The notes under the pieces: model-generated
The model's input: only the letters and a program-made list of their open reading frames with translations
Databases searched by the model: none
Told to the model about the DNA's origin: nothing
Assembly (NCBI GenBank): GCA_027482225.1
Contig: JAIXWD010000016.1
Location: 142,050 to 206,049, forward strand
Direction of reading: 5' to 3'
Source: Bacteroidota bacterium
GTDB lineage: Bacteria; Bacteroidota; Bacteroidia; UKL13-3
Length of the DNA stretch: 64,000 nt
Shown here: piece after piece, positions 1-20,177 of the stretch
Layout: the number at the start of each line of letters is the position of its first letter
How positions within the stretch are numbered: the stretch's first letter is position 1
Made by a program: the position numbers and the translations under genes

Positions 1-1560
1 AAAAATATGCGTATTACTTCACAAAAATTAATGTGTATACAAGAGCGCAAAGTGGTTACTTACGATGCCCAATTTACCCCCACATTTTTTGGTATTGCTG
101 GTGCACTTGATGGTGTTATAAATGCTGCTGGAAATTACAGTTTAGCTATTGTAGAGCAAGGCTTAGTATTGTTTGAACCTAATGGCAATAGATATTTAGC
201 TCCTGCTGGAGCGTGGGGTAATACGGCATCTAAATTTTCATATTCATCTTTACGTAAGCAACTTTTTGTAGCAGGAGGGATGGTTGATGGAATTGGTGCT
301 GCAACAGGATTAAAAAGCACTGGAAATAATAATAAGTATTATGTTTTTGATGGCAACATGTGGTATAACTCTGCTGTAATTAATAATGTACTGGTTAATA
401 AATGCCGCGATTTTTTAGATGTTACTTGTGATGATAAAACAGGAAAAGCTTACCTGACAAGTTTTGGTTTTGGATTGTTGGAAGTTAATAATTTAACTCC
501 AACTGTTTTGTATGATACCAGTAACAGTGCCATTGGTTTTTTTGTAACCGAGTTTGCAACTTTTAGGCCTGTTTATGCTGCAGGAACTACTATTGATAAT
601 TTAGGAAATGTATGGGTTACAAGTTATGGTGCCGCAAAACCACTTGCTGTAAAAACACCATCAAACCAATGGTATTCTTTTGCTTTTAACGGTGGTAATG
701 CCAATGTTAGTTATCTGGTTTGCGATAATAATTTCCCTCGTAATAATAAATGGATTATTAATAACCGTGGCGGAGGATTATACGTATACAATGAGGGTGC
801 AAATATTGCCACTGATGCTGATGATAGGTTTAAAATATTGGGTAAAGAAAAAGGCAATGGATTATTGCCAAGTAACAACGTATTGAGCATGGCTTTAGAT
901 AAAAATGGTGAAATGTGGGTTGGAACCGATAATGGTTTATGCATTATCAGTGATCCAACTGCTGTGTTTAGTAATTCATCAAGTCGTAGTTTTGATGCCC
1001 GACAATTGGTAATTAGTACAGGTAGTTTTAATAGCATAATTTTAGGTACAGATGCCATATTATGTATTAAGGTTGATGGCGCAAATCGTAAGTGGATTGG
1101 TACACGAAATGGTGTTTGGTTGTTGAGTGAAGATGGTTATACTGTTATTCGTAATTTTACTACCGATAATAGTCCATTGTTATCTAATGTAGTTTTTGAT
1201 ATTGGTATTTTTGAAGAGACAGGAGAAGTGTTTTTTGCAACAGAAAAAGGAATTATCAGTTACGCGGGTGATGCCACCCAAGCTGATGCAACGCATGGTA
1301 AAGTAGTGTTATATCCAAATCCAGTAAGGCCTGATTATAATGGAGAAATAGCTATTCGTGGCCTTGCCGAAAATACCAATGTGAAGATAACCGATATAGC
1401 AGGTAACTTGGTTTACGAAACCAAAGCAAATGGTGGTATGGCCACATGGAATGGCAGAAACTTTGCAGGAAAACGCGCTGCTACAGGCGTGTACTTAATA
1501 TACAGTAGCAACGAAGATGCCACAGAAACTTACGTTACTAAGTTGTTGTTTGTAAACTAA
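1..1560 (+). CDS. 5'-truncated secreted protein with two-component-regulator-propeller-like beta-propeller repeats and a T9SS type-A C-terminal sorting domain
   Basis: The reading frame is open to the window edge. It contains repeated W(V/I)GT.NG(L/V) propeller-type motifs. The C-terminus (VLYPNP...GVYLIYSS...KLLFVN) fits the Por secretion tail pattern. Confidence 0.6.
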   Translation, partial: KNMRITSQKLMCIQERKVVTYDAQFTPTFFGIAGALDGVINAAGNYSLAIVEQGLVLFEPNGNRYLAPAGAWGNTASKFSYSSLRKQLFVAGGMVDGIGAATGLKSTGNNNKYYVFDGNMWYNSAVINNVLVNKCRDFLDVTCDDKTGKAYLTSFGFGLLEVNNLTPTVLYDTSNSAIGFFVTEFATFRPVYAAGTTIDNLGNVWVTSYGAAKPLAVKTPSNQWYSFAFNGGNANVSYLVCDNNFPRNNKWIINNRGGGLYVYNEGANIATDADDRFKILGKEKGNGLLPSNNVLSMALDKNGEMWVGTDNGLCIISDPTAVFSNSSSRSFDARQLVISTGSFNSIILGTDAILCIKVDGANRKWIGTRNGVWLLSEDGYTVIRNFTTDNSPLLSNVVFDIGIFEETGEVFFATEKGIISYAGDATQADATHGKVVLYPNPVRPDYNGEIAIRGLAENTNVKITDIAGNLVYETKANGGMATWNGRNFAGKRAATGVYLIYSSNEDATETYVTKLLFVN

Positions 1561-3156: not shown

Positions 3157-3864
3157 ATGTTAAGATTTCTTTATTTAGACGAACATGAATTGTGTCGTAT
3201 TGGTTTCAAAACCATTTTATCCGAAATTTCACCTTCATATATTTTAGATGATGCAGCTAACGCTGAGGAATTACTTAGCCTCTTTAAATTGCATTCACAC
3301 AGCATTGTTATAATTGAAATTAACCTCACTAATACCAATGTATACGAATTAGTTCTACAGATTCTAGAATTAAATGACAATTGTAAAATATTAATCTTGT
3401 CTTCTTTAAGTGAAAAACTATATGCCATTAATTACATTAAAATTGGCGTTAAAGGATTTGTAGCCAAATACGAATCGGCTAAAACTATTAAAGAAGCAAT
3501 TAATGCTATGGTTAATAATAAACGCTTTTTTAGTGATACTGTTATTGATATGCTTTTAAATTTATCTTACAATACACCACGCTCTAATTTGGCTGATAAA
3601 CCTCATGTTAATGGAAGTAATAGGGTAATAGTTCAGCCCAAACTTAGTTTAAAAGAAAGTGAAATATTAAGGATGATTTTACAAGGTATGGGTACCAAAG
3701 AAATTGCTAATGCAAATAGCATAAGATTAAATACCGTTAGCACATACAAATCGAGAATTTTTGAAAAATTTAACGTGAAAAATCTTGTTGAATTAATGCA
3801 AATTGTGAAACAAAATAACATGTATGATGCCTCAGGAATTGAACAGCATTATACACAATATTAG
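3157..3864 (+). CDS. Atypical LuxR/NarL-family response regulator with a Glu at the phospho-acceptor position
   Basis: The C-terminal LuxR-type HTH (ESEILRMILQGMGTKEIANANSIRLNTVSTYKSRIFEKF) is clear. The N-terminal receiver-like domain aligns to NarL with conserved Ser/Thr (ILSSLSE) and Lys (GFVAKYE). The acceptor Asp is replaced by Glu (IVIIEINL) and the acidic pair DD is DE. Confidence 0.75.
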   Translation: MLRFLYLDEHELCRIGFKTILSEISPSYILDDAANAEELLSLFKLHSHSIVIIEINLTNTNVYELVLQILELNDNCKILILSSLSEKLYAINYIKIGVKGFVAKYESAKTIKEAINAMVNNKRFFSDTVIDMLLNLSYNTPRSNLADKPHVNGSNRVIVQPKLSLKESEILRMILQGMGTKEIANANSIRLNTVSTYKSRIFEKFNVKNLVELMQIVKQNNMYDASGIEQHYTQY

Positions 3865-4036: not shown

Positions 4037-7000
4037 ATGTTTAAAGTTACATCAATTAGGGTAATAACACTACTGTTATTAGTTTTTATTCATTTTTCTG
4101 GTCATTCTCAAAATACTTTAGATGGTGTTGGTTTAACCGCAGCAACACCTTCTACAGTTTCATTTAGTTTACGTAAATTAAGTTCTTCATACTCGGGCCC
4201 AGCAATCCAAGTTAGGCGCAGTTCCGATAACGCCACACAAAATATTGGCTTTGATGTGAATGGTAACCTAGATACTGCTGCTCTTATTTCATGGGTGAGC
4301 AGTGGGTCTGGTTTTGTTTCTATTTGGTATGACCAAAGTGGTAATGGATTAAATGCTACACAAGCTACAGCGGCTAACCAACCAGCAATTGTCATTTCAG
4401 GTAATATTAATAGATATAATGGAAGAGTTGCCATAAGTTTTGATGTTATTAGCCAGCACTTTGCTATTTCTTCATTACCCAACACTTTGGTATGGACTAA
4501 CGGTGTATCATCCAATGCAGTTGTTGCATTTAATAATAATGCAAATTGGGCAAGAGTATACGATTTTGGAAATGGAGCAGGAAATAATAACATTCTACTT
4601 ACTCGCAATAGTACTAGTAATACAATAACATTTAGTTTATATGATGGAGGTAATACAACTGCACAACCTTCCGTAACCAATGCTATATCAACAGGCATCA
4701 ATAATATTTATACTACCATTCAGTCGGCTGCTACTTACCCTGGTTCAGCGGCAACCAATATACGCGTAAATGGATCGGCACAAACAACTGCTCCAGCAAC
4801 ATCTAATATCACCCAGCAGGTTACACGTACAAGTAATTTTATTGGCAGGAGCAATTGGAGTGGTGATGCCTATTTTAATGGCAGTATGCAAGAGTTGTTG
4901 TTTTTTAATGTTGCTTTAACAACAACTCAGGCTCAAACACTTGAAAATAGTCAAAGTAGTTACTATTCAATAAATCAACCAACTATCACAAGTACCGCAA
5001 CAGGTGGTAATTGGACAAGTCCTTCAACTTGGGTTGGAGGTGTTGTGCCAAGCAGCACTAATAACGTGGTAATTGCAACTACAGGAGCAAATGCTGTTAC
5101 ATTAAATACGACTGCTACTGTAAATAACTTGGTAATTAATAGTAACTCTAGATTAAATACCGGAGTAAATTCAATAAGTGTATCAGGAGCATTAACATGT
5201 AATGGGATAATATTAACAGCTAGTAGTCAAGGTGTAATTGGAACATTTCCCGGGTTACCATTAAATCGAATTATTTTAAATACGGGTTCTACTGTAGATT
5301 ACATCGGAACAACTTCACAAAATATTTCACCATTAACTTATGGTAATTTAACAGTAAGCAATACTTCTGCACCTAGCACTTTAACAGGTACAACAAGTGT
5401 AGCAGGAAATTTAACCATAAATACCTCTGCTATTTTAGATAAAAGTACTTTTGGTTTAACAGTTAGTAATACTATTTTTAATAACGGAACTTTTAGAACA
5501 AGTGGTGGACGACTTTCAACAGCTGGTGGTACTGCTTATAATTTAGCTTTTGCTACTGGTGCAAATACCTTAGATACTTTAATCGTGAATAGGTCAGCAC
5601 CCATTACATTAACTTCGCCATTAACTATAAATAACTTATTAACGTTAACCAGTGGTATACTAACGGTACCTGCTGGTAATTTAACCCTTTCAACTAATGC
5701 AATTGCAACAGGTGGTTCTAACACTGCATTTATAAACGGACAAGTAATTGTTAATACAAATACCACAAACAGCAGAAACATACCTTTAGGCAAAAACAAT
5801 TTACTTGGTTCAATATCTCTAATGCCTGAATCATCTGCGGCATCAACCTATACTTTAGAGTATTTTAATGGGGCTGGTGTTACTCCTAATTCAGGAAACT
5901 TAGGGGCAGGTTTAGCAGGTGTTGCTACCAATCAATTTTGGAGTATAACTAAAATTGGTACTAATGCTTCATTTACCTTCAATTACAATAGTTCACCGGG
6001 AGGTACCAATGCTCAACAAATTACATTAGTTAAGCGTACAGGAGGTCAGTGGGTTATACAACCAACCTATAGTAGTAGCATGGCTAACGCTTCTAGTGGG
6101 CAAGCCACATCTGTAAATGCCATTACTGGTAGTTATGGTGATTTTGGTTTAGGATTTATTAATGGAGCAGCTGAAAATGGTTTAGATAGTATAGGTTTAA
6201 CAGCCGCTACACCTGCTGCTGCAGCTTATGCCATGCGCAAATTAAGAAGTGCATACAATGGAGCTGCCTTACGTATTAGAAGAAGCAATGATAATTTAGA
6301 AACCAACATTGGTTTTGATGCAAATGGTCATTTAGATACAACTGCAATTAAAACTTTTACGGGTGTAAATGATGCTTATGTTACCACATGGTACGACCAA
6401 AGTGGTAATAACCGTAATTTTATACAAAACACCCTTGCCAACCAACCTCGAATTGTGTTAGCAGGTGTAATAGATCGTAAAAACGGACAGCCCGCCATTA
6501 GGCATTTGGCAGCAAATACCCATAACCTTAATGTTAATACAGGTGGTTTTGTAACCAATAATAACCCCTGGAGCGTAAGCACTGTATCTGGTTTAGATGG
6601 TGGTGCAAACCAAAGGGTGCTAAGTGGTAACACCAATTGGTTTTTAGGATTTCATGGTGGAGGTGAGAGAAGAGCCTTTTTTGCTAATGTATGGATGCGA
6701 TACAATGGGGTAGATAATTATAACAACGCCACAGCAACTACAAACAACCAAATATACACTGCCGTATCTAATGGAAGCAGCGCAAGTGTATTTAACAATG
6801 GTATGCAATTAGCGGGCACTGTGCCTTCAGGAAATACCTCAATTGGAACATTGTCTACAGGTGGTGGTTTTGGTGAATTCTCAAACTGTGTGGTTCAAGA
6901 AGTAATCATCTTTTCATCAGCTTTATCTTCAGCAAATAGAGCAAGTATAGAGCGAAGCCAAGGACTATATTATGCCATTGGTAATTTTGCCATAAGCACG

Positions 7001-10000
7001 CCTGCAGGTGGTAATTGGAGTAACCCAGCAACTTGGGAAAATGGGGTAGTGCCCACAACATCATCAGATGTGGTGATAAACGCAACAGCAGGTGCTGTGG
7101 TTTTAGATATAAATACCAGTATACGATCAATTAATAACGCACATTTGGCCACCCTAAATTTAGGAGCCGCCAATAACATTACAACGTCTTTAGATGTGAT
7201 TAACCAAGGCACATTAATTACTGCACATCCAAACGGATTAATAGGTAGTAGTGCATCTTTAAATATTGGTGGTACCATTTTAAATACGGCATACAATACC
7301 AGTCGTGTGGTATACAATGGAGCTAATCAATTGGTTAATCCGATATCTTATCGAAATTTAAGTTTATTAAATACGAGCAGTACAAAAACATTGCTTATAG
7401 GTTCGGTAACAACAGTTAGCGACACACTTTTTATAGATAATGGTGTTACGTTTAATAAATCAGCGAATGATTTAAACCTAGCTTGTTTAACTGGCACGGG
7501 TTTATTGTCATCTACAGGTGGTTTACTGCGTTTTAATACTTTTAATATTGCCAATATTGGAACATTACGCATGGCACCTGCTCCCAATAATTCTGTTGCA
7601 TTATTTATTTTATCTAATTTTTTCGCTAATGCATCTTTAACATTGGGTACACCATTGCAAGTAACAACAGATGCTACCTTAGATGCTGGAATTTTAAATA
7701 CCGATTCTGTAAACATATTAAGTCTAATAAATGCAAGTACTATAATGAGTAGGTGGAGCCCCGCTACATTTGTTAATGGCCCTGTTCAATTAATAAGTTC
7801 TTCTATTACCACAAGACAAATTGCAGTTGGTAAAAATGGTACGGGAAATCGAATTTTTATTACACCGCAATCTACTGCTACTACTGTATATAATATTGAG
7901 TATTTTAAAGGAAATGGCAGCGTACCTAACACGTCAAGTTTTGATAGTATTGGTTTGTTTAAAGTATATGATAACCAGTATTGGCGCATCAACAGAACAT
8001 CGGGTGTGGCTAATATTAGGGCTGAATTCGCTTTGAATACAGCTATTAACGGTGGCGTTGCCACAGAAACAGTAACTTTAGCCAATTTTGTGGGTGGTCA
8101 GTGGGTTTCTGTTCCAATTGATAGATTTTTATCGGCTACTGCAGCATTACCTACAGCTATTGCCACCCCTGTGGCAATTAGTAATACGGGGTTATTTGCA
8201 TTTGCCAGCGAAAAAGCAATTGCAACAGCACAAAGTGGCGCATGGAATAACCCCAACACATGGGCTGGTGGATTGGTACCCTCTGTATTTCAATCAACTT
8301 TTATTTCGCCTGGCCATACAGTTGCTGTTTCATCTGCGGCTGAAGCATTAAGTATTACGGTTGCTGCTGGCGCTACATTAGATTTAACTACCAACCAAAT
8401 TACTGGAACCTCGAGTGGTATAATAAATAATGGCACAATATTAACTTCACGCAATGCAGGTTTAATAGGAAGTGGCGCATCTTTACCTGCATGCAATACA
8501 ACTAATACCATTTTAAATGCTGGCAGTAGGGTTATTTATAACGGTGGAGGAGCACAAACAATAAGTGCTCTTACCTACAGGAAATTAACCATAAACAATT
8601 CAGCTTCTACTAAAACATTAGCCGGTAACACGGTTGTTTCCGATTCTTTAACTATTAGTACATTATGTACACTAAATAAAGGGGGATTTAATTTAAATTT
8701 AAACAATGGTATTTTTGGTAGCGGATTTTTACAATCAACAGGTGGTGCTTTTACACTTAGTGGTAATGCATTAAGAAACACCATACAGCTAAATAATTTT
8801 GCCAATACTACAATAAATATTAACTCAACGGCATCTGTTACTGATGTTAGTGCAATTACCCACAGTGGTTTAACTTTAAACATGCAAGCAACTGGTGCAA
8901 CCGACACTGTAAATTTAGTTACACCGCTTTCTGTTGCAAATATTTCGTTGTCTTCAGGATTCATTAAAACAGATTCCATTAATATTTTAACATTAACCGG
9001 AAACGGTACTTATGGTTCAAATGCTTCATACATTAATGGACCTGTGCAGTTTAATACCAGTTCAACCAACAACGTAATACTTGGTTTGGGTAAACAGGGC
9101 ACTTCAAGTAATGTAATAATTACCCCAACTACATCAGTTGCTACCGTTTGGCGAGCAGAGTACTATAGAAGTACACCAACTGCCGCACCTTTAGCTTCTA
9201 ATTTGTTGGGTTTAGGTAATAATCATTATTGGACACTAAGCAGAAACAACACCAACAACGCCATAGTTTCTGTTGGTATTAATCAAGCTGCTGGTGGCAC
9301 ATCTGCCAATACTTTAAAGATGGCTATGTTTACCAACAATACGTGGGGTAATGTACCCATAACAGAAAATACAATATTGGCTAATACCAATATAGCTACA
9401 ATAACATCAGCATCAAGTGTGGTTTTAAATAGCAGTGCTGGTGAAATAGATTATTTCGCATTAGGATTTGGCTCATTGCCTGGTGCACTTCACACTATTG
9501 CAAATGGTAATTGGACTAATCCTGCAATATGGAGCACCAATATTGTTCCATCTACAGGCGATAGCGTAACCATACGCACAGGTTTTACTGTAAATTTAGA
9601 TACAACTATTTTACCAGGTACAGGTCCAAGCACAGTATTAATTCAAACAAATGCTAAACTTAATATCAATTCGGGAGTTATATATTACAACTCTGGAGCT
9701 AATAATAATTTAGTACAAAGCTTAATAACTACAGGTGCTAATCCTTCTGTTGTGTTGGGTTTAAGAAGGCTTTCATCAACATACAATGGTCCTGCAATAC
9801 AGGTAAGAAGGGGTAGTGATAATGTCCTACAAGATGTATTTTTTACATCAGCTGGTAATTTAAATACCAGCACCTTATTGAATTTTGCAGCGGGTTCAAG
9901 TTTGTTTGTGGTAAGGTGGTACGATCAATCTGGTAATGGAAGAGATTTTGTACAAAATACGCCAGGTAACCAACCACGAATTGTAAACAATGGGGTATTA

Positions 10001-13000
10001 GAAATCAAAAATAACCAACCCGCCATAAGGCACATAGCCGCTAATAACAATTTCTTATTTGGTGGTTCGTTGGGTTTAGCTAATAATTTCTTTACCGTAA
10101 ATGTAGTGTCTTCTAATGATGGCGCCACAACAGGCCGGATGTTATCATCTGAAGCCAATAATTGGATGCTAGGCTTTCATCCGGGTATAGAACGTACTGC
10201 ACATTTTGGTGGTGGGAATTGGCAAGTTTACAACACACCTACTACCCCAGCTAACCAAATTTATACCGCTGTTGGTCAAAATACTAATAATGCATTAATA
10301 TATAGAAACGGAACTTTACTACCATTATTGGCTGTGCCATCTAACCGCCCAATTGATTTGAGAACCGCAGGAGCTTATGCTCAGTGGGCTGATGGAACCA
10401 TGCAAGAAATAGTAATTGTACCAACTGCATTAAATGATGCTCAAAGGAACTCAATTGAAAATTCGCAACAATCTTATTATTTAAATGGGGTTTCATTTAT
10501 AACAACTAATGGTATCATCAACAATGGTACAATAGGAATTGCAGATGCCAACGGGTTAGATTCTGCTGTTGTTGGTACTGGTCCAATTTTTAATTCAAGT
10601 TCAACTTTAAATTACAATGGTAGCAGTCAAAATATAACAGCAGTTGTAGCTTCCAATTTGGTATTATCTGGTTCGGGTACTAAAACAATGGTTGGCGATG
10701 TTACTGTTACAGGAAATTTAACGGTTAACAGTGGAATAACGTTTAACAAATCAAACCGCAACTTAAGTTTTTCAGGAACCACCATTACCAATAATGGTAT
10801 AATGCAATCTACGGGAGGTACTTTATCACTTACAGGTAGTGGTAACATTAACATTGGGTTTAATGATGCTACAAATAATGTGTTAGGTAATTTAGTATTA
10901 AGCAGGGGAGGTTCTCATACGCTAACAAATCCTTTAACGATTAATACAAGTATTGCATTAAACAATGGTATTTTAAATACTACAGTTACAAATATAATTA
11001 ACCTTGGTGGCAAAGCAACTACAATAGGTGGCAGTAATACCAGCCACATCAACGGGCCATTAAATTTAATTACAAATTCCTTGTTTCAAAGAACTGCACC
11101 TATAGGTAAAAACAATATGTATGCTCCAGTTCAAATTCAACCACAAACACAAACACAAACAACATACACTGTGCAATACTTTAATGGTGCAGGTGTTACA
11201 CCAAATTCCAACAACAGAGGCCCAGGTATTATAGGTGTTGCAACCAACCAATATTGGAGTATTACCAGAAATAACAGTAACAATGCCATTGTAGGTGTTG
11301 GTTTTAACACAAGTGCAGGTGGTACCAGTGCACAGCAATTGGTGCTAGCCAACAAAATTATCAACACTTGGACACGTAACTCAGTAAACAATACCATATT
11401 AGGTAATGCAATATCAGGTAATTTTGCAACGCAAAGTTTTGTTTCAAATTTTGGTGATTTTACTTTAGGTTACACAAGTGCGTTACCAGATAATGGCTTG
11501 GATAGTTTGGGATTGAATAACACCACAACAACTTCACTTGCTTTAAGCCTACGCAGGTTAAGAAGTGCTTACCAAGGCCCTGCTATAAGGGTTAATCGTT
11601 TAAGAGATTCTGCCGAATTAGACATTTATTTCCAAGACAATGGTTTTTTAGATACCTTAACCTTAAAGAATTTTGCAGCAGGCGCAACAGGAGAAAACTT
11701 GGTTACGTTTAGCGAGGATTTTGATAATTCGGTTTACATCAGAAATGGATCCTCAGCATACAGTATTTTTCCTAATGTAGCCCTTTCACCAATTGGCACA
11801 CTTACTGCCGATTCTATGAACCTAGGTCGCACCAATGGGCAGTGGGATGTGTTTCGTCAAATAAATAATTTAGTAATTGGGCGTACCTATACTTTGTCTA
11901 TGTATATAAGGCTAGGTACTGCCAATAATTTTAATGTGGTTGTAAATAATACCGCTGCTTGGAACACCATTGGTGGTAATTCTTATAATGCCAGCAATGC
12001 CTCATTAAATAATGCAACATGGCAGCGCATAAGCTATACTTTTGTTTGCCCTGCAACCGGTAGGGTTAACGTGCATTTAGGTAGCCATGGCGGTAATCAA
12101 ACTGGCGTTACAGCACAAAGCAATGGTTCTGTTTATATTTGGGGTTTTCAGCTAGAAGAAGGGAGTTCTGCTAATATGTATATTGCCACTGGGCCAATTA
12201 GCATACTTAATTCCGTTAACGTAAAAACATGGTACGATCAAAGTGGTAATGGAAGGCATGCAGTACAAAATAATATTTTTTTACAACCCACTTTAACCTT
12301 AAATGGTGTAATTAATTACATGAATAACAAACCATCTATGTTATATGATGGTGTTGATGATGGTTTTTTAATTAATAACATACCAACAGTTAATAACAAT
12401 GTAAATAGCTTATTCTGGGTGCAACGCGCTACAAAAAACACATACATGAATTTATTCCCTAATACATCTCCCTCAAACGGAATAATCAATTCGGGTAATA
12501 GAATGTTGTTAGCCAGTTTAGGCGATGGAAGTACGGACGTAATAACGGGATTAACCAATAATATTTCCTCGTTTTTAATTAATGGTTTCCAAACAGGTTG
12601 GAGCTCATCTACCACGCGAAATGTGGTTCATCAAGCTTTACAATTTAATCCGTCTATTGTTAATTCGTTAAACCAGCCGTTTAACTTTAATGGTAATATG
12701 GTAATAGCTAACGGACATACAGGTTGGAATTTTGGTGGTGATATGCCCGAAATAGTGGTAACTACTTCTACGTTAGATAGTGCAAGACGCGTTGCGGTTG
12801 AATTAAGTATGGGCAGGTATTATGGCATTGTTACCAAAGAAAGTGATGCTTGGGTAAGTACAGATGTTGGTGGAAACTGGAGCGATATCAATACTTGGGT
12901 ACAAAACTCTGTACCACCTGCAGGAGCAGCTATTGCCATTGCAACAAAGGGAAATAATAGTGTAGTATTAGATACAACCATGACATTCTCTGGTATTACC

Positions 13001-16000
13001 GTGCGTGCAGGTGCAACCCTTAATTTAGGCAATAGTAGAACAACCACATTAAGCGGCCAATTAATTAATAATGGAACTATTATCACATCACATCCTAATG
13101 GTTTAACTGGTGTTTCTGCATCTGTAGTAGGAACAGTAACGCATAATATTGGAAGTACAATTATTTATAATGGTAGCAGCCAAATAGTCACTCCAACAAG
13201 TTACCGAAACTTAAGGGTAAGTGGATTAAATACCATAAAAACAATGGCAATGGGGGCATTAACAGTAAATGATACCCTTACTATAGATTCTGGAGTAACG
13301 TTTGTACAATCAAACAGTGCATTAACTTTAAACGGTAATATATCTGGTACTGGTTTTTTACGACCTAATCCAAGCAATGCAATAAGTATTGGTGGGGGTA
13401 ATGGTGGTAATTTCGGAACTATTCATTTTGATACCCTTACTAATATGAATATAGTGGGTACATTTACTTTAAATAGATCTGGAATTAATCCGTCACTAAC
13501 ACTTGGAAATAACTTACAAGCAAACTCATCAGTTAACCTAAACAATGGATTATTAAATACAAGTAATGGTGCCCTACTAATATTAAATAATATTGGTACA
13601 ATTGGTTCAGGTGGTTCGTATATTAATGGCCCTGCTAGGTTAATTAATGCATCAACTAATACAAATAGAACGATTCACGTAGGTAAAAATGGTCTTTTAG
13701 GAGCAGTTACAATCAATCCTGGTGCAACAAGTTCTACCTCTTGGGATGTTCAATACTTTGGAAGTACACCTGCAAATATTGGTAATGTTAGTGGTACTAT
13801 ATCATCATTAAGCCCAACACAGTATTGGAGTGTAACCAAAAACAGCTCACCAGCTGCAAGTCCAATTTTAGCATTTAATTTTAACCAAGCTCCGGGCGGG
13901 TTGGCAACATCAAGTTTGGCATTGGTAAGGTATCTAACCAATTGGCAGTTGGTGCCTGTTACAGCAAATAGCCTTAATGGTTTATCAGCAAGTGGTACCT
14001 TAACTACTTCTGGTTCTGTATCGTTTCCTGTTGGAGTAAATGGCAATGATTTTGCAATTGGTTATCCAGCACCATTTGAAACTAAAAAATCGGGTAATTG
14101 GAGAGATACATCTGTATGGGTTATGGGTGCAGTTCCTCCTTTGGGTTCAAGGGTATTTATAAGAGCTTCTCATGTGGTTACCGTAGATACTACAATTGCA
14201 ACAGCAGGTACACCATCAAGTATATCTATTTTAAATGGAGGGGAGTTGGTATTCAATTCAATAAATACAATTGGTGCTGTGGCAAGTGGAGTAACTGTTG
14301 CAGGAACTTTAACCACTGCTCATGCTGGTGGAATTAGCACAAGTATAGCGGGCACTATTACCTTTAGTAATGGTAGCCGTTTACGCTACAATGGAGCAGC
14401 TCAAAATGTAACAGCGATAGATTGTGAAGAGCTTGTATTAGAAGGTTCTGGAACAAAAACGCAAACAGGAGCAATATTGGTGAACGATACATTATTAATT
14501 GGTAATGGAATTACGTTTGCTAATTTAACACAAACACTTACTCTATATGGTAATTATGTGTCAAATGGTGGAGGCATAAGTAGCAGCAATGGGAATATAA
14601 TTGTTGGTGGATCGTTAGGTGGTCATTTTGGTAGTTTAAACTTATCTGGAACATTGGCAAACTTTACATTTAGAAGATATGGATCATCACCATCTTTAAA
14701 TGTGGTTAATCCGTTTAGCGTAGCTAATTTAGTTATCGAAAATGGGATAATAAACACAGATACTAACAATGTAATTACATTAACAGGATCGGCAACTTTA
14801 GGTTCATCATCTGCCCATATCAATGGTCCAATAAGGGTAATAACCACATCAGTTTCACCTTTAATTTTACCAATTGGTAAAGGAGGAATTTTAGGTTCTA
14901 TTAATTTTACTCCAAGTACCGCTTCAACAACAACTTGGTATGCCGAGTACTTTAATGCGGCACCAGGAAATACCAATGTTGATACAACCATTAGTTCAAT
15001 AAGTGCATCACAATATTGGTTGTTTAGCCGCTTATCAGGTACAGCCAATGCCGCAGTTACTTTTAATTTTAATAAATCTGCAGGAGGTAACTCATCACAG
15101 GCAATTACTTTAGCACGTTTTGCTTCATCAGCTTGGACACTTCAAAATACGGCATTAAATAATTTAAATGGTGCCACCGTAAATGGTTCATTAAGTTTGC
15201 CAACGCAATCTTTATTCAGTTATTTCGGTGTTGGGTTTTTTAATGAGTTTTTTTCTGTAGCCTCTGGCAACTGGTCTAGTCCTTCTACTTGGAATACCAA
15301 TTCGGTTCCTACATCATCTGCTCGAGTTACCATAAATTCAGGACATGTTGTTAATGTTTTAGGTACCATTAATCCTAAAAGTATAATAATAGAGGCAAAC
15401 GCCCAACTTAACTTAGATACTTTCCAAGTAATTGGTCAGGATGTTACAGTTGATTTAATAGGTACAATTGAAACGGCTCGTGCAGGTGGGTTAATAGGCA
15501 CAGGTGCATCCATTGAACAAGGTAATATTTTGTTAGGTTCATTCGCCAAGGTAGTATACAATGGCTCGGTTCCGCAAGTATTATCGCCATTAAGTTACCG
15601 TAAATTGGTTATAGCAAATCCAGCGGGAGTAACAGCAGGTAACAATCTTATACTTGGCGATTCATTCATTGTATCTTCAGGATTTTTAAATCTCTCAACA
15701 TTCAATCTTACATTAACCGGTGGCTTTAATATGGAATCTAATGCTAGGGGTATTAGAGCAAGTGGAAACAATAACATACAGATTTCATCATCAGGTAATC
15801 TTATGATGGATACCACTGTTAGAGGTGTTACAAATAGGTTGGCTAACTTAACTATAACTGGATCTAATTTAGTAACGCTTTTAAATTTCCTTGAGGCCAA
15901 AGTAGAAGTTAGTGTGAGTGGAGCTAATTTAAACAGCAATGGATTTCTAACATTAATTTCTGATTCATTAGGCACTGCAAGAGTAGCTGCATTGGTATCG

Positions 16001-17662
16001 CCTGCTCAAATAACAGGTAATGTAATTGTGCAGAGGTATATTCCTGCTATAACCCGTAGATCTCGACAGCTTACTTCACCAGTGACTGGTTTTACCTATA
16101 ATCAATTAATTGATGACATTTTCGTTACTGGCCCTGTCGGTGGTATAGGATTCGATATTTCTACTACCAATAATGCATCAATTAATACTTATAACGAACA
16201 AACATCTAACGGAAGGGGCAATAAACCAGTCCAAAATATTAATGACACATTGTTGCCAGGTTTAGGGGCTTTTGTTTTCATTAGGGGAGACCGAACTCTT
16301 CCTTCGCCACAATGGTTTACTCCACCGTTTGTGCCACAAAATGCAGTTACATTAGATTTTGTTGGACCAATTAATCAAGGAGTAGTTTCTCCGCAAATAA
16401 CCTATACACCCACAGGTACACCAACTAATGATGGTTGGAATATGGTAGGAAATCCTTTCCCATCACCAATTGATTGGAGCTTGGTAAATAAAACTGGTTT
16501 AACACCTTTTTACTATACACTAAATCCTTCAACAGGTTCATCTGTGGCTGCTAATGTAGGTATTATAGCATCTGGTCAAGGTATATTTGTACAAGCCTCA
16601 TCAGCTAATCCTACCATTACTTTTAGTGAGTCTTCAAAAGTTTCTGGTACTCCTACAAATTATTTTAAAACCAGTACACCGCCATTATTAATTACCATGA
16701 CAAGGGATGCATTAAATAGTGATGTTGCTATGATGAATTTTAATGCAACATATAGCAGGTCATTTAACAATATGGAAGATGCCTTTAAAATGACAAATGC
16801 TGTTATAAATCTTTCTTTATATGCTGGTACAACGCCTGTTCAAATAAATGGTTTACCAATATTATCTCCATTGGCAACTGATACGTTTGATATAGGTGTA
16901 GATGCTTCTGCTGGTAATTATTCTTTACGATTTAATAATTTAATTGCTATACCAACTGGCTTAAATAGTTATTTAATAGATAGGATGCTTAATACCACTT
17001 TACCAATAGTTGCTGGTGTTGATTATCCGTTTAGTATATCAAGCAGCCCTGCATCGTTTGGTAAAAGATTTGCGATTGTTTTTTCTCCGCTTAATCCTTT
17101 ACCTATTAAGTTACTTAGCTTTAATGCAGCTAAAAGTAATGATAACGTGGTGTTAAATTGGCGCACAGCTTCCGAGTTAAATATGCAAAGTCATATTTTA
17201 GAAAGAAAACTTAGCACTGATTTAACATTTAAAGAAATAGCAGTTATTAAGCCTAATACGGGTGCAGTAGTTGCAACTAACTATGCATACACCGATGCTG
17301 ATATACTAAATAATGCCAGTGGTTTAATATGCTACAGGATAAAGTTGGTAGAAACAAATAAATCATCGTTAAACAGTCATGTTGTTTGTATAGATCCAGT
17401 CATTACAACATCTGCAGCCAACATTTTACTGTTACCAAACCCAGCTCAAGAGGGCGATGTGGTAAAATTAAAAATAGCAGGTTTACAATACGATAGTTAT
17501 GAAATACATGTTGTTGATCTGCTAGGAAGAGTAATACATAAGCAACTAAGTACTACAAACGATATAGATATTGATACCAAACAATTTGATTCTGGTATTT
17601 ATAATATTTTGTTGTTGTCTGATGGCGTTTTGTTGGGAACATCAAAGTTATCAATACAATAA
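4037..17662 (+). CDS. Giant (4541 aa) T9SS-secreted cell-surface protein containing signal peptide, repeated LamG-like jellyroll domains, seven beta-solenoid-like supermodules, one CBM-like insertion, a conserved pre-CTD domain and a type-A T9SS CTD
   Basis: Uninterrupted 13.6 kb ORF. The N-terminal signal peptide is MFKVTSIRVITLLLLVFIHFSGHSQ. The motif (R/K)(K/R)L(S/R)S.Y.GPAI.V.R..D followed by WYDQSGNG....QP.IV recurs at ~4325, 6389, 9917 and 12229. Seven G(G/N)W..P.TW..G.VP...D.V.I motifs occur at ~5004, 7007, 8237, 9506, 12869, 14093 and 15266, each followed by YNG..Q.V...SYR.L, INGP and EYF.G...YW motifs. The C-terminus (LLPNPAQEGDVVKLKIAG...GIYNILLLSDGVLLGTSKLSIQ) is a Por secretion tail. 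Confidence 0.85.
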   Translation: MFKVTSIRVITLLLLVFIHFSGHSQNTLDGVGLTAATPSTVSFSLRKLSSSYSGPAIQVRRSSDNATQNIGFDVNGNLDTAALISWVSSGSGFVSIWYDQSGNGLNATQATAANQPAIVISGNINRYNGRVAISFDVISQHFAISSLPNTLVWTNGVSSNAVVAFNNNANWARVYDFGNGAGNNNILLTRNSTSNTITFSLYDGGNTTAQPSVTNAISTGINNIYTTIQSAATYPGSAATNIRVNGSAQTTAPATSNITQQVTRTSNFIGRSNWSGDAYFNGSMQELLFFNVALTTTQAQTLENSQSSYYSINQPTITSTATGGNWTSPSTWVGGVVPSSTNNVVIATTGANAVTLNTTATVNNLVINSNSRLNTGVNSISVSGALTCNGIILTASSQGVIGTFPGLPLNRIILNTGSTVDYIGTTSQNISPLTYGNLTVSNTSAPSTLTGTTSVAGNLTINTSAILDKSTFGLTVSNTIFNNGTFRTSGGRLSTAGGTAYNLAFATGANTLDTLIVNRSAPITLTSPLTINNLLTLTSGILTVPAGNLTLSTNAIATGGSNTAFINGQVIVNTNTTNSRNIPLGKNNLLGSISLMPESSAASTYTLEYFNGAGVTPNSGNLGAGLAGVATNQFWSITKIGTNASFTFNYNSSPGGTNAQQITLVKRTGGQWVIQPTYSSSMANASSGQATSVNAITGSYGDFGLGFINGAAENGLDSIGLTAATPAAAAYAMRKLRSAYNGAALRIRRSNDNLETNIGFDANGHLDTTAIKTFTGVNDAYVTTWYDQSGNNRNFIQNTLANQPRIVLAGVIDRKNGQPAIRHLAANTHNLNVNTGGFVTNNNPWSVSTVSGLDGGANQRVLSGNTNWFLGFHGGGERRAFFANVWMRYNGVDNYNNATATTNNQIYTAVSNGSSASVFNNGMQLAGTVPSGNTSIGTLSTGGGFGEFSNCVVQEVIIFSSALSSANRASIERSQGLYYAIGNFAISTPAGGNWSNPATWENGVVPTTSSDVVINATAGAVVLDINTSIRSINNAHLATLNLGAANNITTSLDVINQGTLITAHPNGLIGSSASLNIGGTILNTAYNTSRVVYNGANQLVNPISYRNLSLLNTSSTKTLLIGSVTTVSDTLFIDNGVTFNKSANDLNLACLTGTGLLSSTGGLLRFNTFNIANIGTLRMAPAPNNSVALFILSNFFANASLTLGTPLQVTTDATLDAGILNTDSVNILSLINASTIMSRWSPATFVNGPVQLISSSITTRQIAVGKNGTGNRIFITPQSTATTVYNIEYFKGNGSVPNTSSFDSIGLFKVYDNQYWRINRTSGVANIRAEFALNTAINGGVATETVTLANFVGGQWVSVPIDRFLSATAALPTAIATPVAISNTGLFAFASEKAIATAQSGAWNNPNTWAGGLVPSVFQSTFISPGHTVAVSSAAEALSITVAAGATLDLTTNQITGTSSGIINNGTILTSRNAGLIGSGASLPACNTTNTILNAGSRVIYNGGGAQTISALTYRKLTINNSASTKTLAGNTVVSDSLTISTLCTLNKGGFNLNLNNGIFGSGFLQSTGGAFTLSGNALRNTIQLNNFANTTININSTASVTDVSAITHSGLTLNMQATGATDTVNLVTPLSVANISLSSGFIKTDSINILTLTGNGTYGSNASYINGPVQFNTSSTNNVILGLGKQGTSSNVIITPTTSVATVWRAEYYRSTPTAAPLASNLLGLGNNHYWTLSRNNTNNAIVSVGINQAAGGTSANTLKMAMFTNNTWGNVPITENTILANTNIATITSASSVVLNSSAGEIDYFALGFGSLPGALHTIANGNWTNPAIWSTNIVPSTGDSVTIRTGFTVNLDTTILPGTGPSTVLIQTNAKLNINSGVIYYNSGANNNLVQSLITTGANPSVVLGLRRLSSTYNGPAIQVRRGSDNVLQDVFFTSAGNLNTSTLLNFAAGSSLFVVRWYDQSGNGRDFVQNTPGNQPRIVNNGVLEIKNNQPAIRHIAANNNFLFGGSLGLANNFFTVNVVSSNDGATTGRMLSSEANNWMLGFHPGIERTAHFGGGNWQVYNTPTTPANQIYTAVGQNTNNALIYRNGTLLPLLAVPSNRPIDLRTAGAYAQWADGTMQEIVIVPTALNDAQRNSIENSQQSYYLNGVSFITTNGIINNGTIGIADANGLDSAVVGTGPIFNSSSTLNYNGSSQNITAVVASNLVLSGSGTKTMVGDVTVTGNLTVNSGITFNKSNRNLSFSGTTITNNGIMQSTGGTLSLTGSGNINIGFNDATNNVLGNLVLSRGGSHTLTNPLTINTSIALNNGILNTTVTNIINLGGKATTIGGSNTSHINGPLNLITNSLFQRTAPIGKNNMYAPVQIQPQTQTQTTYTVQYFNGAGVTPNSNNRGPGIIGVATNQYWSITRNNSNNAIVGVGFNTSAGGTSAQQLVLANKIINTWTRNSVNNTILGNAISGNFATQSFVSNFGDFTLGYTSALPDNGLDSLGLNNTTTTSLALSLRRLRSAYQGPAIRVNRLRDSAELDIYFQDNGFLDTLTLKNFAAGATGENLVTFSEDFDNSVYIRNGSSAYSIFPNVALSPIGTLTADSMNLGRTNGQWDVFRQINNLVIGRTYTLSMYIRLGTANNFNVVVNNTAAWNTIGGNSYNASNASLNNATWQRISYTFVCPATGRVNVHLGSHGGNQTGVTAQSNGSVYIWGFQLEEGSSANMYIATGPISILNSVNVKTWYDQSGNGRHAVQNNIFLQPTLTLNGVINYMNNKPSMLYDGVDDGFLINNIPTVNNNVNSLFWVQRATKNTYMNLFPNTSPSNGIINSGNRMLLASLGDGSTDVITGLTNNISSFLINGFQTGWSSSTTRNVVHQALQFNPSIVNSLNQPFNFNGNMVIANGHTGWNFGGDMPEIVVTTSTLDSARRVAVELSMGRYYGIVTKESDAWVSTDVGGNWSDINTWVQNSVPPAGAAIAIATKGNNSVVLDTTMTFSGITVRAGATLNLGNSRTTTLSGQLINNGTIITSHPNGLTGVSASVVGTVTHNIGSTIIYNGSSQIVTPTSYRNLRVSGLNTIKTMAMGALTVNDTLTIDSGVTFVQSNSALTLNGNISGTGFLRPNPSNAISIGGGNGGNFGTIHFDTLTNMNIVGTFTLNRSGINPSLTLGNNLQANSSVNLNNGLLNTSNGALLILNNIGTIGSGGSYINGPARLINASTNTNRTIHVGKNGLLGAVTINPGATSSTSWDVQYFGSTPANIGNVSGTISSLSPTQYWSVTKNSSPAASPILAFNFNQAPGGLATSSLALVRYLTNWQLVPVTANSLNGLSASGTLTTSGSVSFPVGVNGNDFAIGYPAPFETKKSGNWRDTSVWVMGAVPPLGSRVFIRASHVVTVDTTIATAGTPSSISILNGGELVFNSINTIGAVASGVTVAGTLTTAHAGGISTSIAGTITFSNGSRLRYNGAAQNVTAIDCEELVLEGSGTKTQTGAILVNDTLLIGNGITFANLTQTLTLYGNYVSNGGGISSSNGNIIVGGSLGGHFGSLNLSGTLANFTFRRYGSSPSLNVVNPFSVANLVIENGIINTDTNNVITLTGSATLGSSSAHINGPIRVITTSVSPLILPIGKGGILGSINFTPSTASTTTWYAEYFNAAPGNTNVDTTISSISASQYWLFSRLSGTANAAVTFNFNKSAGGNSSQAITLARFASSAWTLQNTALNNLNGATVNGSLSLPTQSLFSYFGVGFFNEFFSVASGNWSSPSTWNTNSVPTSSARVTINSGHVVNVLGTINPKSIIIEANAQLNLDTFQVIGQDVTVDLIGTIETARAGGLIGTGASIEQGNILLGSFAKVVYNGSVPQVLSPLSYRKLVIANPAGVTAGNNLILGDSFIVSSGFLNLSTFNLTLTGGFNMESNARGIRASGNNNIQISSSGNLMMDTTVRGVTNRLANLTITGSNLVTLLNFLEAKVEVSVSGANLNSNGFLTLISDSLGTARVAALVSPAQITGNVIVQRYIPAITRRSRQLTSPVTGFTYNQLIDDIFVTGPVGGIGFDISTTNNASINTYNEQTSNGRGNKPVQNINDTLLPGLGAFVFIRGDRTLPSPQWFTPPFVPQNAVTLDFVGPINQGVVSPQITYTPTGTPTNDGWNMVGNPFPSPIDWSLVNKTGLTPFYYTLNPSTGSSVAANVGIIASGQGIFVQASSANPTITFSESSKVSGTPTNYFKTSTPPLLITMTRDALNSDVAMMNFNATYSRSFNNMEDAFKMTNAVINLSLYAGTTPVQINGLPILSPLATDTFDIGVDASAGNYSLRFNNLIAIPTGLNSYLIDRMLNTTLPIVAGVDYPFSISSSPASFGKRFAIVFSPLNPLPIKLLSFNAAKSNDNVVLNWRTASELNMQSHILERKLSTDLTFKEIAVIKPNTGAVVATNYAYTDADILNNASGLICYRIKLVETNKSSLNSHVVCIDPVITTSAANILLLPNPAQEGDVVKLKIAGLQYDSYEIHVVDLLGRVIHKQLSTTNDIDIDTKQFDSGIYNILLLSDGVLLGTSKLSIQ
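4990..16100 (+). repeat. Seven diverged intragenic tandem supermodules of ~1.2 kb (~400 aa) within the giant gene, repeated at protein level
   Basis: The ordered motif series GxW..P.TW / YNG..Q / INGP / EYFxG..YW recurs seven times. There are no long identical DNA repeats, so the duplication is ancient or diversified. Confidence 0.6.
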
Positions 17663-17679: not shown

Positions 17680-18324
17680 ATGAATTTGGCATATCAAATT
17701 ATTATAAAGAGGGGAGTTTTTTTCAGTTTATTATTTTTAACAGCTTTCGATTCCATAGCCCAAAGCGCTTATGGTCAAGCGGGGGATGATGATATCTATA
17801 GTGACTATGGTTATCAGTATTCAAACTATTCTAATTCTGTTTATGAGTTTTCTGAAGAAGAAAAATATAGAAAAAGGCAAGAACGGTTTTATAAAAAAAG
17901 CTACGATGAAGAAGATTTATATAATGGTGGATACAGGGTGAAAAGTCGTTCATCGGAAGTTGATTATTACGCTTTTGGAGGTATTGGCTCAGGTAATATT
18001 GGTAATAGCGTTAAATCATGGTTTAATAGAGACAGTAAAAATGAATCACCTTTACCGAGTAACCAAGAAAAATATAACAACAACGAGGTTGGAACAATTG
18101 ACGGCATTGATAGGTTGGGTGAGGATGGAAAAAGCGGTTTAGCCAACAACAAAGATAATGGTGAGATTTTACAACCAAAAGATGATAAACAAACCGAAAC
18201 CGCACCACCACCGCCAGATGAACCTGATATTCCAATTACAAGTCCTTTATTAAGTATACTCATGATTGTTATAATGATAGGTGTAGCTGTTTTTAACTTA
18301 TCAAACAGATTTAAGATATTATGA
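17680..18324 (+). CDS. Tail-anchored secreted protein that is acidic, Tyr/Asp/Glu/Asn-rich low-complexity, and has a Pro-rich stalk and C-terminal transmembrane helix
   Basis: It has a signal peptide (FFSLLFLTAFDSIAQSA), low-complexity acidic region, PPPPDEPDIP stretch and a C-terminal hydrophobic helix (LLSILMIVIMIGVAVF). It starts 18 bp after the giant gene's stop codon. Confidence 0.55.
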   Translation: MNLAYQIIIKRGVFFSLLFLTAFDSIAQSAYGQAGDDDIYSDYGYQYSNYSNSVYEFSEEEKYRKRQERFYKKSYDEEDLYNGGYRVKSRSSEVDYYAFGGIGSGNIGNSVKSWFNRDSKNESPLPSNQEKYNNNEVGTIDGIDRLGEDGKSGLANNKDNGEILQPKDDKQTETAPPPPDEPDIPITSPLLSILMIVIMIGVAVFNLSNRFKIL

Positions 18325-19457
18325 AAATTAAAACTCTTGTTTTAACTTTAGTTTTGTTTTGTGCATCAACATGCATAGATGTGCAATCACAATCATTATT
18401 TGATAAGAGTACAATAACTGCCCATTCATCTTTAGGTAGAAATTACATCATTAATAATGAATTAGGTAATCCGGGAATGACTTGGACATTGGGCACCTTA
18501 TTTAATTTGGCTAATGTAGTTACTTTAGGATCTAATTACGCTGTGGGGAGTTCTAGCGGTGTAGAAGCTGAGGGAAGTTACAGAAATTCATTTAGAATTT
18601 ATGATGTTGATATTGGGTATATTAAAACATTTAAAAATGCAAAAAGCAACATAATAAATAAGTCATCACTTTCTATTTGTGGTGGTGTTGCACTTTTTCA
18701 TACTAATATTAATTCTTGGAGTGTTAAAAAGGGACTTGCAATATACGATATGTCTTTTTTCTCCTATAAGTTAGGAGCTGGCTACTCTTATAAATTAAAC
18801 GAATTATTAACAGCTAAGGCCAATGTTTCATATTATTTAACATTAACTAATTTATTAGATGGTTTAAACACTGGTAGTAAAGATGATTTACTGGTTTTTT
18901 CGTTAGGCCTTGGTTATAATATAAATGCTTTTGATGCGAGAAAGGAAAGATTACTCCTTTACAATGCGATTCAAGAAAACATAACTATAAACAACAAATT
19001 GTTAATGGAGATTGCAAAAATTGATGGTCAAAGTAAACAAGGAATTAAGAATAATGAATCTCAAAATGGATTAGTAAATGTTAAATCGGATTCAATCTTT
19101 AAAGACAAAGCAGTTAACAATTCAGATTCTTTAAAAATACCTTTAAGTTACACACTTGAAAATGCACCAGAAAAAAATAACGATTCAGTTAAGTATACTA
19201 TAAAGTACCCCCGACATAAATACAATGTAGTATTCGGAGGCTTTTTTAGCATAAAAAATGCACTTTCTGAAGTTGCAAAGATGAAGAAATCTGGTATTAA
19301 TGCTGAGCCCTATTGGAAAGGAGATAAAAGTAAACTGGTGTTTTTAGTTGTTTTCTCTAGTAATGATTATCAGGAAGCCCAAGAGAAGGTTAGATCTTTT
19401 AGGAAAAAGGGATACACTGATGTATGGTTATATACATCTAATTCAACCAAAAAATAA
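18321..19457 (+). CDS. Outer-membrane beta-barrel protein fused to a C-terminal SPOR (septal peptidoglycan-binding) domain
   Basis: It has a signal peptide. The N-terminal ~200 aa show alternating amphipathic beta-strand character with Y/G-rich turns, as in OMP beta-barrels. The C-terminal ~75 aa (YNVVFGGFFSIKNALSEVAKMKKSGINAEPYWKGDKSKLVFLVVFSSNDYQEAQEKVRSFRKKGYTDVWLY) fit the SPOR pattern. Its start overlaps the upstream gene by 4 bp (ATGA). Confidence 0.55.
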   Translation: MKIKTLVLTLVLFCASTCIDVQSQSLFDKSTITAHSSLGRNYIINNELGNPGMTWTLGTLFNLANVVTLGSNYAVGSSSGVEAEGSYRNSFRIYDVDIGYIKTFKNAKSNIINKSSLSICGGVALFHTNINSWSVKKGLAIYDMSFFSYKLGAGYSYKLNELLTAKANVSYYLTLTNLLDGLNTGSKDDLLVFSLGLGYNINAFDARKERLLLYNAIQENITINNKLLMEIAKIDGQSKQGIKNNESQNGLVNVKSDSIFKDKAVNNSDSLKIPLSYTLENAPEKNNDSVKYTIKYPRHKYNVVFGGFFSIKNALSEVAKMKKSGINAEPYWKGDKSKLVFLVVFSSNDYQEAQEKVRSFRKKGYTDVWLYTSNSTKK

Positions 19458-19463
19458 TTTTAA

Positions 19464-20177
19464 ATGAATATTCAAAATCAATCAGAATTTGATTCGAGGT
19501 ATGATTTATTCTTACATGCTGCTCACGAATTAAACACTCCTTTAACGTCTTTAGTAATGGCAACCTTTTTATTAAAGAACGATAAGACGAATTTTGAAAG
19601 TAGGCAAAAATTTTTAAATAGCGTAAATGTTATTGAACGTTCTTGTGATAGACTTCAACGAACCATAAATAATGTAATTCTTTATCATCGATTACAACAA
19701 CCTAATTTCCCAGTATACGATCAAAAGTTAGTAGAGGTGCTTTTTCTTATAAGAGAATGCGCAGAAAAAATATCAAATCAACAAGGTAGAACTGGTGATA
19801 TTGTTTTTAATTTTTCTTTAGATTCTGATGTTGGGTTGTTAATTCCACGTGAATATTTTATGGTAATGATTAATGAGTTAATTCATAATGCATTTAGCTT
19901 TTCTGAAGTTGGATCAAAAGTTATAATCAATTATAGACTATCAAATAAATTTGGTGTTTTTTCTATTACCGATTTTGGCATTGGTATGGGAAAAGAAGAG
20001 GTATCGGCAATAGGTGCTTATACTCAATTTAACAGAGGAATATTGGAACAACAAGGCTTAGGGTTAGGGTTAACTTTAGTGAAACAATTAACGGATAAAC
20101 ATTTTGGTGAGTTAAAGATTAACTCTAGTAAAGGAAAAGGTACAACCGTTCAGTTATGTATTCCTTTGTATTGTTAA
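19464..20177 (+). CDS. Minimal cytoplasmic histidine kinase with HisKA H-box and HATPase_c, lacking sensor and transmembrane domains
   Basis: The H-box (HELNTPLTSL) begins at residue ~21. The N box is NELIHNAF, G1 is DFGIGMG and G2 is GLGLGLTLV. It has no hydrophobic segments. An in-frame stop immediately upstream precludes a longer N-terminus. Confidence 0.75.
   Translation: MNIQNQSEFDSRYDLFLHAAHELNTPLTSLVMATFLLKNDKTNFESRQKFLNSVNVIERSCDRLQRTINNVILYHRLQQPNFPVYDQKLVEVLFLIRECAEKISNQQGRTGDIVFNFSLDSDVGLLIPREYFMVMINELIHNAFSFSEVGSKVIINYRLSNKFGVFSITDFGIGMGKEEVSAIGAYTQFNRGILEQQGLGLGLTLVKQLTDKHFGELKINSSKGKGTTVQLCIPLYC

Follow-up and report, generated by a model that had tools for sequence, protein, structure and literature searches.

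A CBM-like beta-sandwich of phage-fibre type nested in one of four GH54-like domains of a giant, predicted T9SS-secreted protein of a Bacteroidota bacterium

The fourth of the four sandwich domains in a giant protein encoded on a stretch of 64,000 nucleotides from a Bacteroidota bacterium (contig JAIXWD010000016.1; hereafter the window) is interrupted by a second, complete domain. The host domain, of ~280 aa, is repeated four times in the protein and is GH54-like. The insert, of ~174 aa, is related to phage head-spike-fibre and tail-fibre proteins and to the carbohydrate-binding modules CBM4/9/22. We regard it as highly probable that copy 4 is a discontinuous host domain (A1-B-A2) and that the nesting is real. 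The features discussed here are listed in Table 1.

Table 1. Coordinates of the giant gene, of its domains and of adjacent genes in the window
Feature	Residues (aa)	Position (nt)	Strand	Remarks
PorZ homologue (T9SS anionic-LPS delivery)		7-1560	+	NF052228, E 2e-116, profile positions 244-757 only
Giant ORF, 4541 aa		4037..17662	+	All four sandwich copies and the insert lie inside
Host copy 1, uninterrupted	24-312	4106..4972	+	Profile A3 positions 14-281, 235 bits; PF09206 at aa 35-115
Host copy 2, uninterrupted	711-981	6167..6979	+	Profile A3, 224 bits
Host copy 3, uninterrupted	1880-2148	9674..10480	+	Profile A3, 225 bits
Copy 4, host N piece	2489-2552	11501..11692	+	Profile A3 positions 19-82, E 3e-19
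Insert, CBM4/9/22-like beta-sandwich of phage head-spike-fibre/tail-fibre type	2553-2726	11693..12214	+	
Copy 4, host C piece	2727-2931	12215..12829	+	Profile A3 positions 82-281, E 7e-29
T9SS type A C-terminal sorting domain	4467-4528	17435..17620	+	PF18962, TIGR04183
Two ORFs, 214 and 378 aa		17680-18324 and 18321-19457	+	Directly 3' of the giant gene

The interruption is apparent from the spacing of two motifs. WYDQSG occurs four times in the giant protein. The distance from R(R/K)L..Y.G(P/A)A to WYDQSG is 51 aa in copies 1-3 (aa 46/97, 734/785 and 1910/1961) versus 226 aa from RRL/RKL to WYDQSG in copy 4 (aa 2506/2732; nt 11552 and 12230), so copy 4 holds ~175 extra residues. When the four copies are aligned with MAFFT, a single gap block of ~175 aa opens, flanked by homologous sequence. 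Similarly, against a family profile of 282 positions built from 54 uninterrupted family members (A3), each of copies 1-3 gives one unbroken match of 224-235 bits, and copy 4 gives two collinear matches that break at one profile position (~82). The two pieces of copy 4 reach 56 + 88 bits against the family profile, versus 225-235 bits for copies 1-3. Chance would not be expected to yield such a split collinear match. The N piece carries the RRLRSAYQGPAIRVNR...LDTLTLKNFAAG motif and is modelled as three strands plus a helix, while the C piece has the VKTWYDQSGNG strand as its first element and the ...ELSMGRYYGI helix as its last.

A nested insertion in copy 4 had been proposed in the initial annotation, at coordinates that were right within ~20 nt, and the spacing, the four-copy alignment and the split profile match all agree with it. 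The same annotation had called the insert unique in the protein. This was confirmed by phmmer and by an insert-family profile, which found one significant match (aa 2552-2719, E 3e-51). It had also considered that copy 4 might be two complete LamG domains separated by an unrelated linker. This arrangement is ruled out by the collinear profile halves and by the alignments, both of the four copies and of the loop with and without the insert: one host domain is split at a single loop. A disordered linker as a reading of the insert was rejected as well.

The nested unit was modelled with AlphaFold2 from an alignment of 89 sequences (A2), with a pLDDT of 83.3 and a pTM of 0.78. This model supersedes an earlier one from a 63-sequence alignment (pLDDT 70.7). 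The pLDDT is 94-95 in the N piece, mostly 85-97 in the insert, which has ~ten strands, and 93-95 at the start of the C piece, where some later loops are poorly predicted. In the predicted model, the host N and C pieces form one domain that closes around the inserted sandwich, the outcome that the AlphaFold check was meant to reveal. The insert, which might have turned out to lack a beta-sandwich, is modelled with a CBM-type one. Fold matches in BFVD were mostly to phage proteins in which CBM-like and ConA-like domains stand in tandem; their rmsd was high, and they included nothing decisive on nesting.

The description of the host as LamG-like holds in the broad, ConA-like sense only: the domain is not a Pfam LamG domain and is nearer to GH54, by way of the N-terminal part of PF09206. 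For PF09206 (ArabFuran-catal), the protein total is 97 bits. A whole-domain match was not reached, the best stretch covering profile positions 8-90 of 315 only, about a quarter of the Pfam model, and copy 4 searched alone gave no PF09206 match. The family profile also matches the GH54 structure 1WD3 (residues 16-87, E 1.2e-10), in a stretch that continues without a break past the site of the copy 4 insertion, and the host fold is the 1WD3 fold. A phmmer search of copy 1 against PDB sequences returned only a spurious match to uL18; GH54 came up only with the family profile. The host is a GH54-like member of the ConA-like sandwich superfamily. Unlike the catalytic domain of GH54 alpha-L-arabinofuranosidase B (PF09206; 1WD3), it is a domain of ~280 aa repeated in surface and virion proteins, it comes without the AbfB arabinose-binding domain, its catalytic region is not detectably conserved and a second domain breaks it up in copy 4. 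That no similarity is detectable in the catalytic part speaks against an enzymatic activity of the host.

For the insert, a search of PDB sequences gave the RcGTA head spike fibre Rcc01080 (E 1.8e-6 over 173 aa, query residues 7-179) and a weak match to the CBM4 of laminarinase 16A. In PHROG, the insert matched phrog_5939 (tail, E 4.9e-12), phrog_34853 (E 4.4e-10) and phrog_8510 (E 1.5e-9). Rcc01080 and these three families are homologous to the insert end to end, and an N-terminal 'NLLxxSEEF' and a C-terminal 'WGAQLExG...Y' are common to the insert and to Rcc01080 and the PHROG tail families. In Pfam, the insert scores 25.7 bits (E 1.6e-5) against CBM_4_9 (PF02018), short by 0.2 of the cut-off of 25.9; its relatives P0160 and P0124 lie above that cut-off, at 29.5 and 26.6 bits. 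Together with the modelled fold, these matches support the initial view of the insert as a CBM-like or tail-fibre-like jellyroll. The best fold matches of the modelled insert are genuine ligand-binding CBMs.

The setting of the insert differs from that of its relatives. In Rcc01080 and the phage tail proteins, the domain is free-standing or in tandem on a virion fibre, whereas here it is nested within another sandwich in a cellular protein, a predicted T9SS cargo. Compared with the CBM4/CBM9/CBM22/CBM16 sandwiches (PF02018; e.g. 1GUI, 4BJ0, 4XUO, 2ZEW and 8XMZ), it falls below the Pfam gathering threshold and has no recognisable glycoside hydrolase attached to it. The head spike fibre is required for binding to capsule-bearing R. 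capsulatus cells, and the fibre alone also binds CPS-bearing cells (PMC10218006, PMC7296036). Rcc01080 is built for residues 2-10 only in 6TB9, and the region homologous to the insert is outside the resolved part; the homologue thus gives functional and not structural evidence. By this analogy, we lean slightly towards a glycan-binding or ligand-specificity role for the insert. It may not be the main specificity determinant, as the host domains could contribute.

Orthologous segments were found in two freshwater MAGs from different lakes, with 93% and 76% protein identity. The MAGs are labelled 'Bacteroidetes bacterium RE-16jun15-135' and Chitinophagaceae (ME2015 series). Both orthologues keep the nested unit, with the same junctions and the reading frame intact. 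The dN/dS of the insert is 0.17 versus L001 and 0.11 versus L002, and that of the host pieces 0.05-0.08. These ratios indicate that the insert is under purifying selection and evolves somewhat faster than the host pieces, a difference that is significant against one orthologue only (Fisher p 0.004 for L001, p 0.31 for L002).

Beyond the orthologues, the closest relatives of the copy 4 C piece are in other giant proteins, P0123 (184 bits) and P0142 (110 bits). In both, the loop is uninterrupted, '...FVGSGSG' passing directly into 'FISLWYDQSGN...' (a loop of the P0123 type: '...FVGSGSGFISLWYDQ...'), and the same G8-like module as in copy 4 follows. Because copy 4 has its own close counterparts there, it is an old, distinct paralogue type and not a recent internal duplicate, and because these closest paralogous giant proteins are without the insert, the insertion is specific to this lineage. 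The ~35 best insert relatives beyond the orthologue are all non-nested domains (65-123 bits), and the nested inserts of other proteins reach 58 bits or less against the window insert. In a scan of ten relatives, the insert-only proteins matched tail or virion-structural families of PHROG, often in the form insert plus Laminin_G_3, and one of them sits in a run of Laminin_G_3 genes. The insert occurs alone or in tandem in many proteins (P0182, P0187, P0160 and others) and is thus an autonomous domain. A word-indexed homologue search with the insert alone as query gave no matches; an exhaustive search of representatives had to be used in its place. Near the junctions, direct repeats are only short and imperfect, as chance predicts, and the GC shift at the insertion is slight (0.39-0.41 versus 0.32-0.37); the insertion would be old enough to have left no DNA scars. 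The most economical interpretation is that a phage-tail-type module entered a domain of the copy 4 type in this lineage only.

The giant protein starts with a signal-peptide-like leader and is made up of the four GH54-like sandwiches, repeated G8-like 'GNWxxPxxW' modules and the C-terminal sorting domain, which scores above both cut-offs (PF18962, 28.4 bits, cut-off 27; TIGR04183, 26 bits, cut-off 23). This layout, together with the PorZ homologue encoded a short way upstream, identifies it as a predicted T9SS-secreted surface protein. NCBIfam has no model for the giant protein as such, and neither of the two ORFs directly downstream had a match in Pfam or NCBIfam. The start and stop codons of these ORFs overlap, which suggests co-transcription, and their products could serve the T9SS cargo as accessory or anchoring partners. 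Since NF052228 is matched only from position 244, the N-terminal third of the PorZ model is missing from the listed ORF, and the PorZ gene probably starts upstream of the window. The genes flanking the giant ORF are ordinary chromosomal ones (RecO, a two-component system and transketolase). A LuxR-type response regulator is encoded directly upstream of the giant gene (3157-3864, +) and a short HisKA/HATPase protein downstream of it (19464-20177, +); the two might be regulators of the giant gene.

The motif 'GNWxxPxxWxxxxVP' repeats at aa 326, 994, 1403, 1826, ~2947, ~3361 and 3746 of the giant protein (nt ~5012 to 15272). Each occurrence opens a Thr/Ser/Asn-rich module of ~350-420 aa between or after the sandwich domains, and Pfam G8 gives a weak match at aa 3361-3428. 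These G8-like modules are probably beta-helix-like repeats.

The explanation that we consider likely is that a complete CBM4/9/22-type sandwich was spliced into a surface loop of copy 4, between the N-terminal three-strand-plus-helix unit ('...LDTxxLKxFxxG') and the 'VxTWYDQSGN' strand, and that the host sandwich would close around it despite the interruption. The insertion would have arisen in this freshwater Chitinophagaceae-like lineage, from a source whose nearest relatives are free-standing phage-tail-like domains, and purifying selection would have kept it since. The giant protein would be a T9SS-exported cell-surface adhesin. The insert would project from copy 4 and provide the adhesin with one additional site for glycans, different from the remainder of the protein, and so may give the copy-4 part of the scaffold a ligand specificity of its own, by analogy with the capsule-binding RcGTA head spike fibre.

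Other explanations accept the nesting and differ on function. The insert could be a structural spacer or a protein-protein module with no glycan role, specificity then lying in the host sandwiches or the G8 modules. We think this unlikely given the ligand-binding CBMs among its best fold matches, the binding of its only characterised sequence homologue to capsule-bearing cells, and the recurrence of the module where phage, pilin and T9SS surface proteins have their exposed ends. It is also conceivable that the host is an active GH54-like glycosidase with the insert as its substrate-targeting CBM, which would make the protein an enzyme unit and not an adhesin. Several observations make this improbable: the Pfam and PDB-profile matches span the first 80-90 of 315 positions and leave the region of the catalytic residues without detectable conservation, copy 4 by itself is not recognised by PF09206, the near-invariant residues of the family lie in the N-terminal structural motif and in a LamG-like 'QExIxY' strand, and the family is typical of phage virion proteins.

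Other explanations dispute the nesting itself. The ~60-aa N motif could be an independent mini-domain, so that N piece, insert and C piece are beads on a string. The occurrence of N pieces in tandem before several C pieces in other proteins (patterns NNFCC and NNICC, described below) could, taken alone, suggest that the N piece is autonomous; we consider this very improbable. Finally, an assembly chimera or frameshift artefact was rejected, and its probability is negligible: two independent MAGs from different lakes have the same junctions and an intact frame, the dN/dS is well below 1, and there are neither flanking repeats nor a clear break in composition. A nested, lineage-specific insert that probably contributes a binding site to an adhesin remains the reading that we prefer.

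Domain insertion is common, and there is ample precedent for CBM-type sandwiches and for phage fibre modules. Nested, multi-level domain insertions have been documented in a survey (Protein Sci 2026, PMC13114784), and the A1-B-A2 insertions described there resemble copy 4 in that a smaller domain occupies a surface loop and makes the host discontinuous. In the open-access papers searched, we found no mention of this pairing of host and insert, or of this host inserting recursively into itself at one loop. Searches of open-access text on PF09206 beyond the fungal enzymes, on the WYDQSG motif and on nested LamG or tail-fibre insertions likewise gave no description of the architecture. In the window, the insertion singles out, within a surface protein of 4541 aa that is otherwise repetitive, one module that is distinct in structure and probably binds glycans; the corresponding fragment (aa ~2553-2726) is a concrete handle on the ligand of an uncultured freshwater bacterium of Chitinophagaceae-like type.

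Copy 4 is one case of a widespread architecture that is seen again in numerous metagenomic proteins. With the nested unit as query, an exhaustive search led to 6421 representative proteins at E ≤ 1e-3. In 269 fetched proteins, full host domains (F), split host pieces (N and C) and inserts (I) were labelled by two profiles. The host is split in 88 of the 236 fetched proteins that contain it, a sample biased towards nested proteins since the query was itself nested. The loop of these split hosts is occupied by CBM-like domains or by whole host copies, in the patterns NFFC (15 proteins), NIC (12), NNFCC (11), NFC (6), NIIC (5), NNICC (2) and NNIICC (1). Bracket-like patterns are seen in P0001, P0012, P0127, P0235 and others, and are consistent with up to three nesting levels. 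The N pieces stop at profile positions 77-83 and the C pieces begin at 79-81, with a second class of 21 C pieces that begin at position 95, directly past the WYDQSGN strand. The junction motifs are conserved among the split hosts.

The loop (positions ~77-83, with the second site at ~95) could be a general insertion 'socket' that takes one to three CBM-like receptor-binding domains or recursive host copies, to three apparent levels (N[N[F]C]C, N[N[I]C]C), a proposal that we make tentatively and hold to be slightly less probable than not. The recursive split-host pattern, seen in a biased sample of sequences, would be a lead and not a conclusion. If the proposal is right, binding modules could be exchanged or stacked in phages, type IV pilins and T9SS giant proteins with the scaffold undisturbed, and copy 4 of the window would be an independent use of the socket, its insert coming from a different, phage-tail-like subfamily than most nested inserts. 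This behaviour at the family level is a more interesting lead than the window case. A GH54-like sandwich that is common among virion proteins of phages, modular pilins and T9SS adhesins would tolerate, and repeatedly gain, binding domains at one loop. This matters for annotation, because such proteins now receive partial 'arabinofuranosidase' labels or none. It is also relevant to the prediction of phage receptor-binding proteins, and the loop may be a permissive site for engineered domain grafting.

The host-insert-host units were found in at least three settings: a phage head-gene module, a type IV pilin-like protein and T9SS proteins. P0012 (pattern NNICC; L006, 7338-9545) lies in a siphovirus-like head module with the order TerL, portal, ClpP-like protease, capsid, connector-like protein, P0012 and head closure. 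This position, with the analogy to the RcGTA head spike fibre, suggests that P0012 is a head fibre or decoration protein. In P0044 (L007, 4172-6043; L008, 4544-6415), as well as in P0034 and P0038, the host-insert-host unit stands behind a prepilin-type N-terminal helix. This helix gives a weak N_methyl match and the genes adjoin T2SSE/T2SSF, which suggests that these proteins are modular type IV pilins with a nested lectin-like module. In addition, a second insertion site past the WY(D/T)Q strand is seen in P0023, P0124, P0133 and others. In P0023, a second CBM-like domain comes after 'GFVTKWYTQDSNG', and the host resumes at 'RRDASQSTAANQPQIV'.
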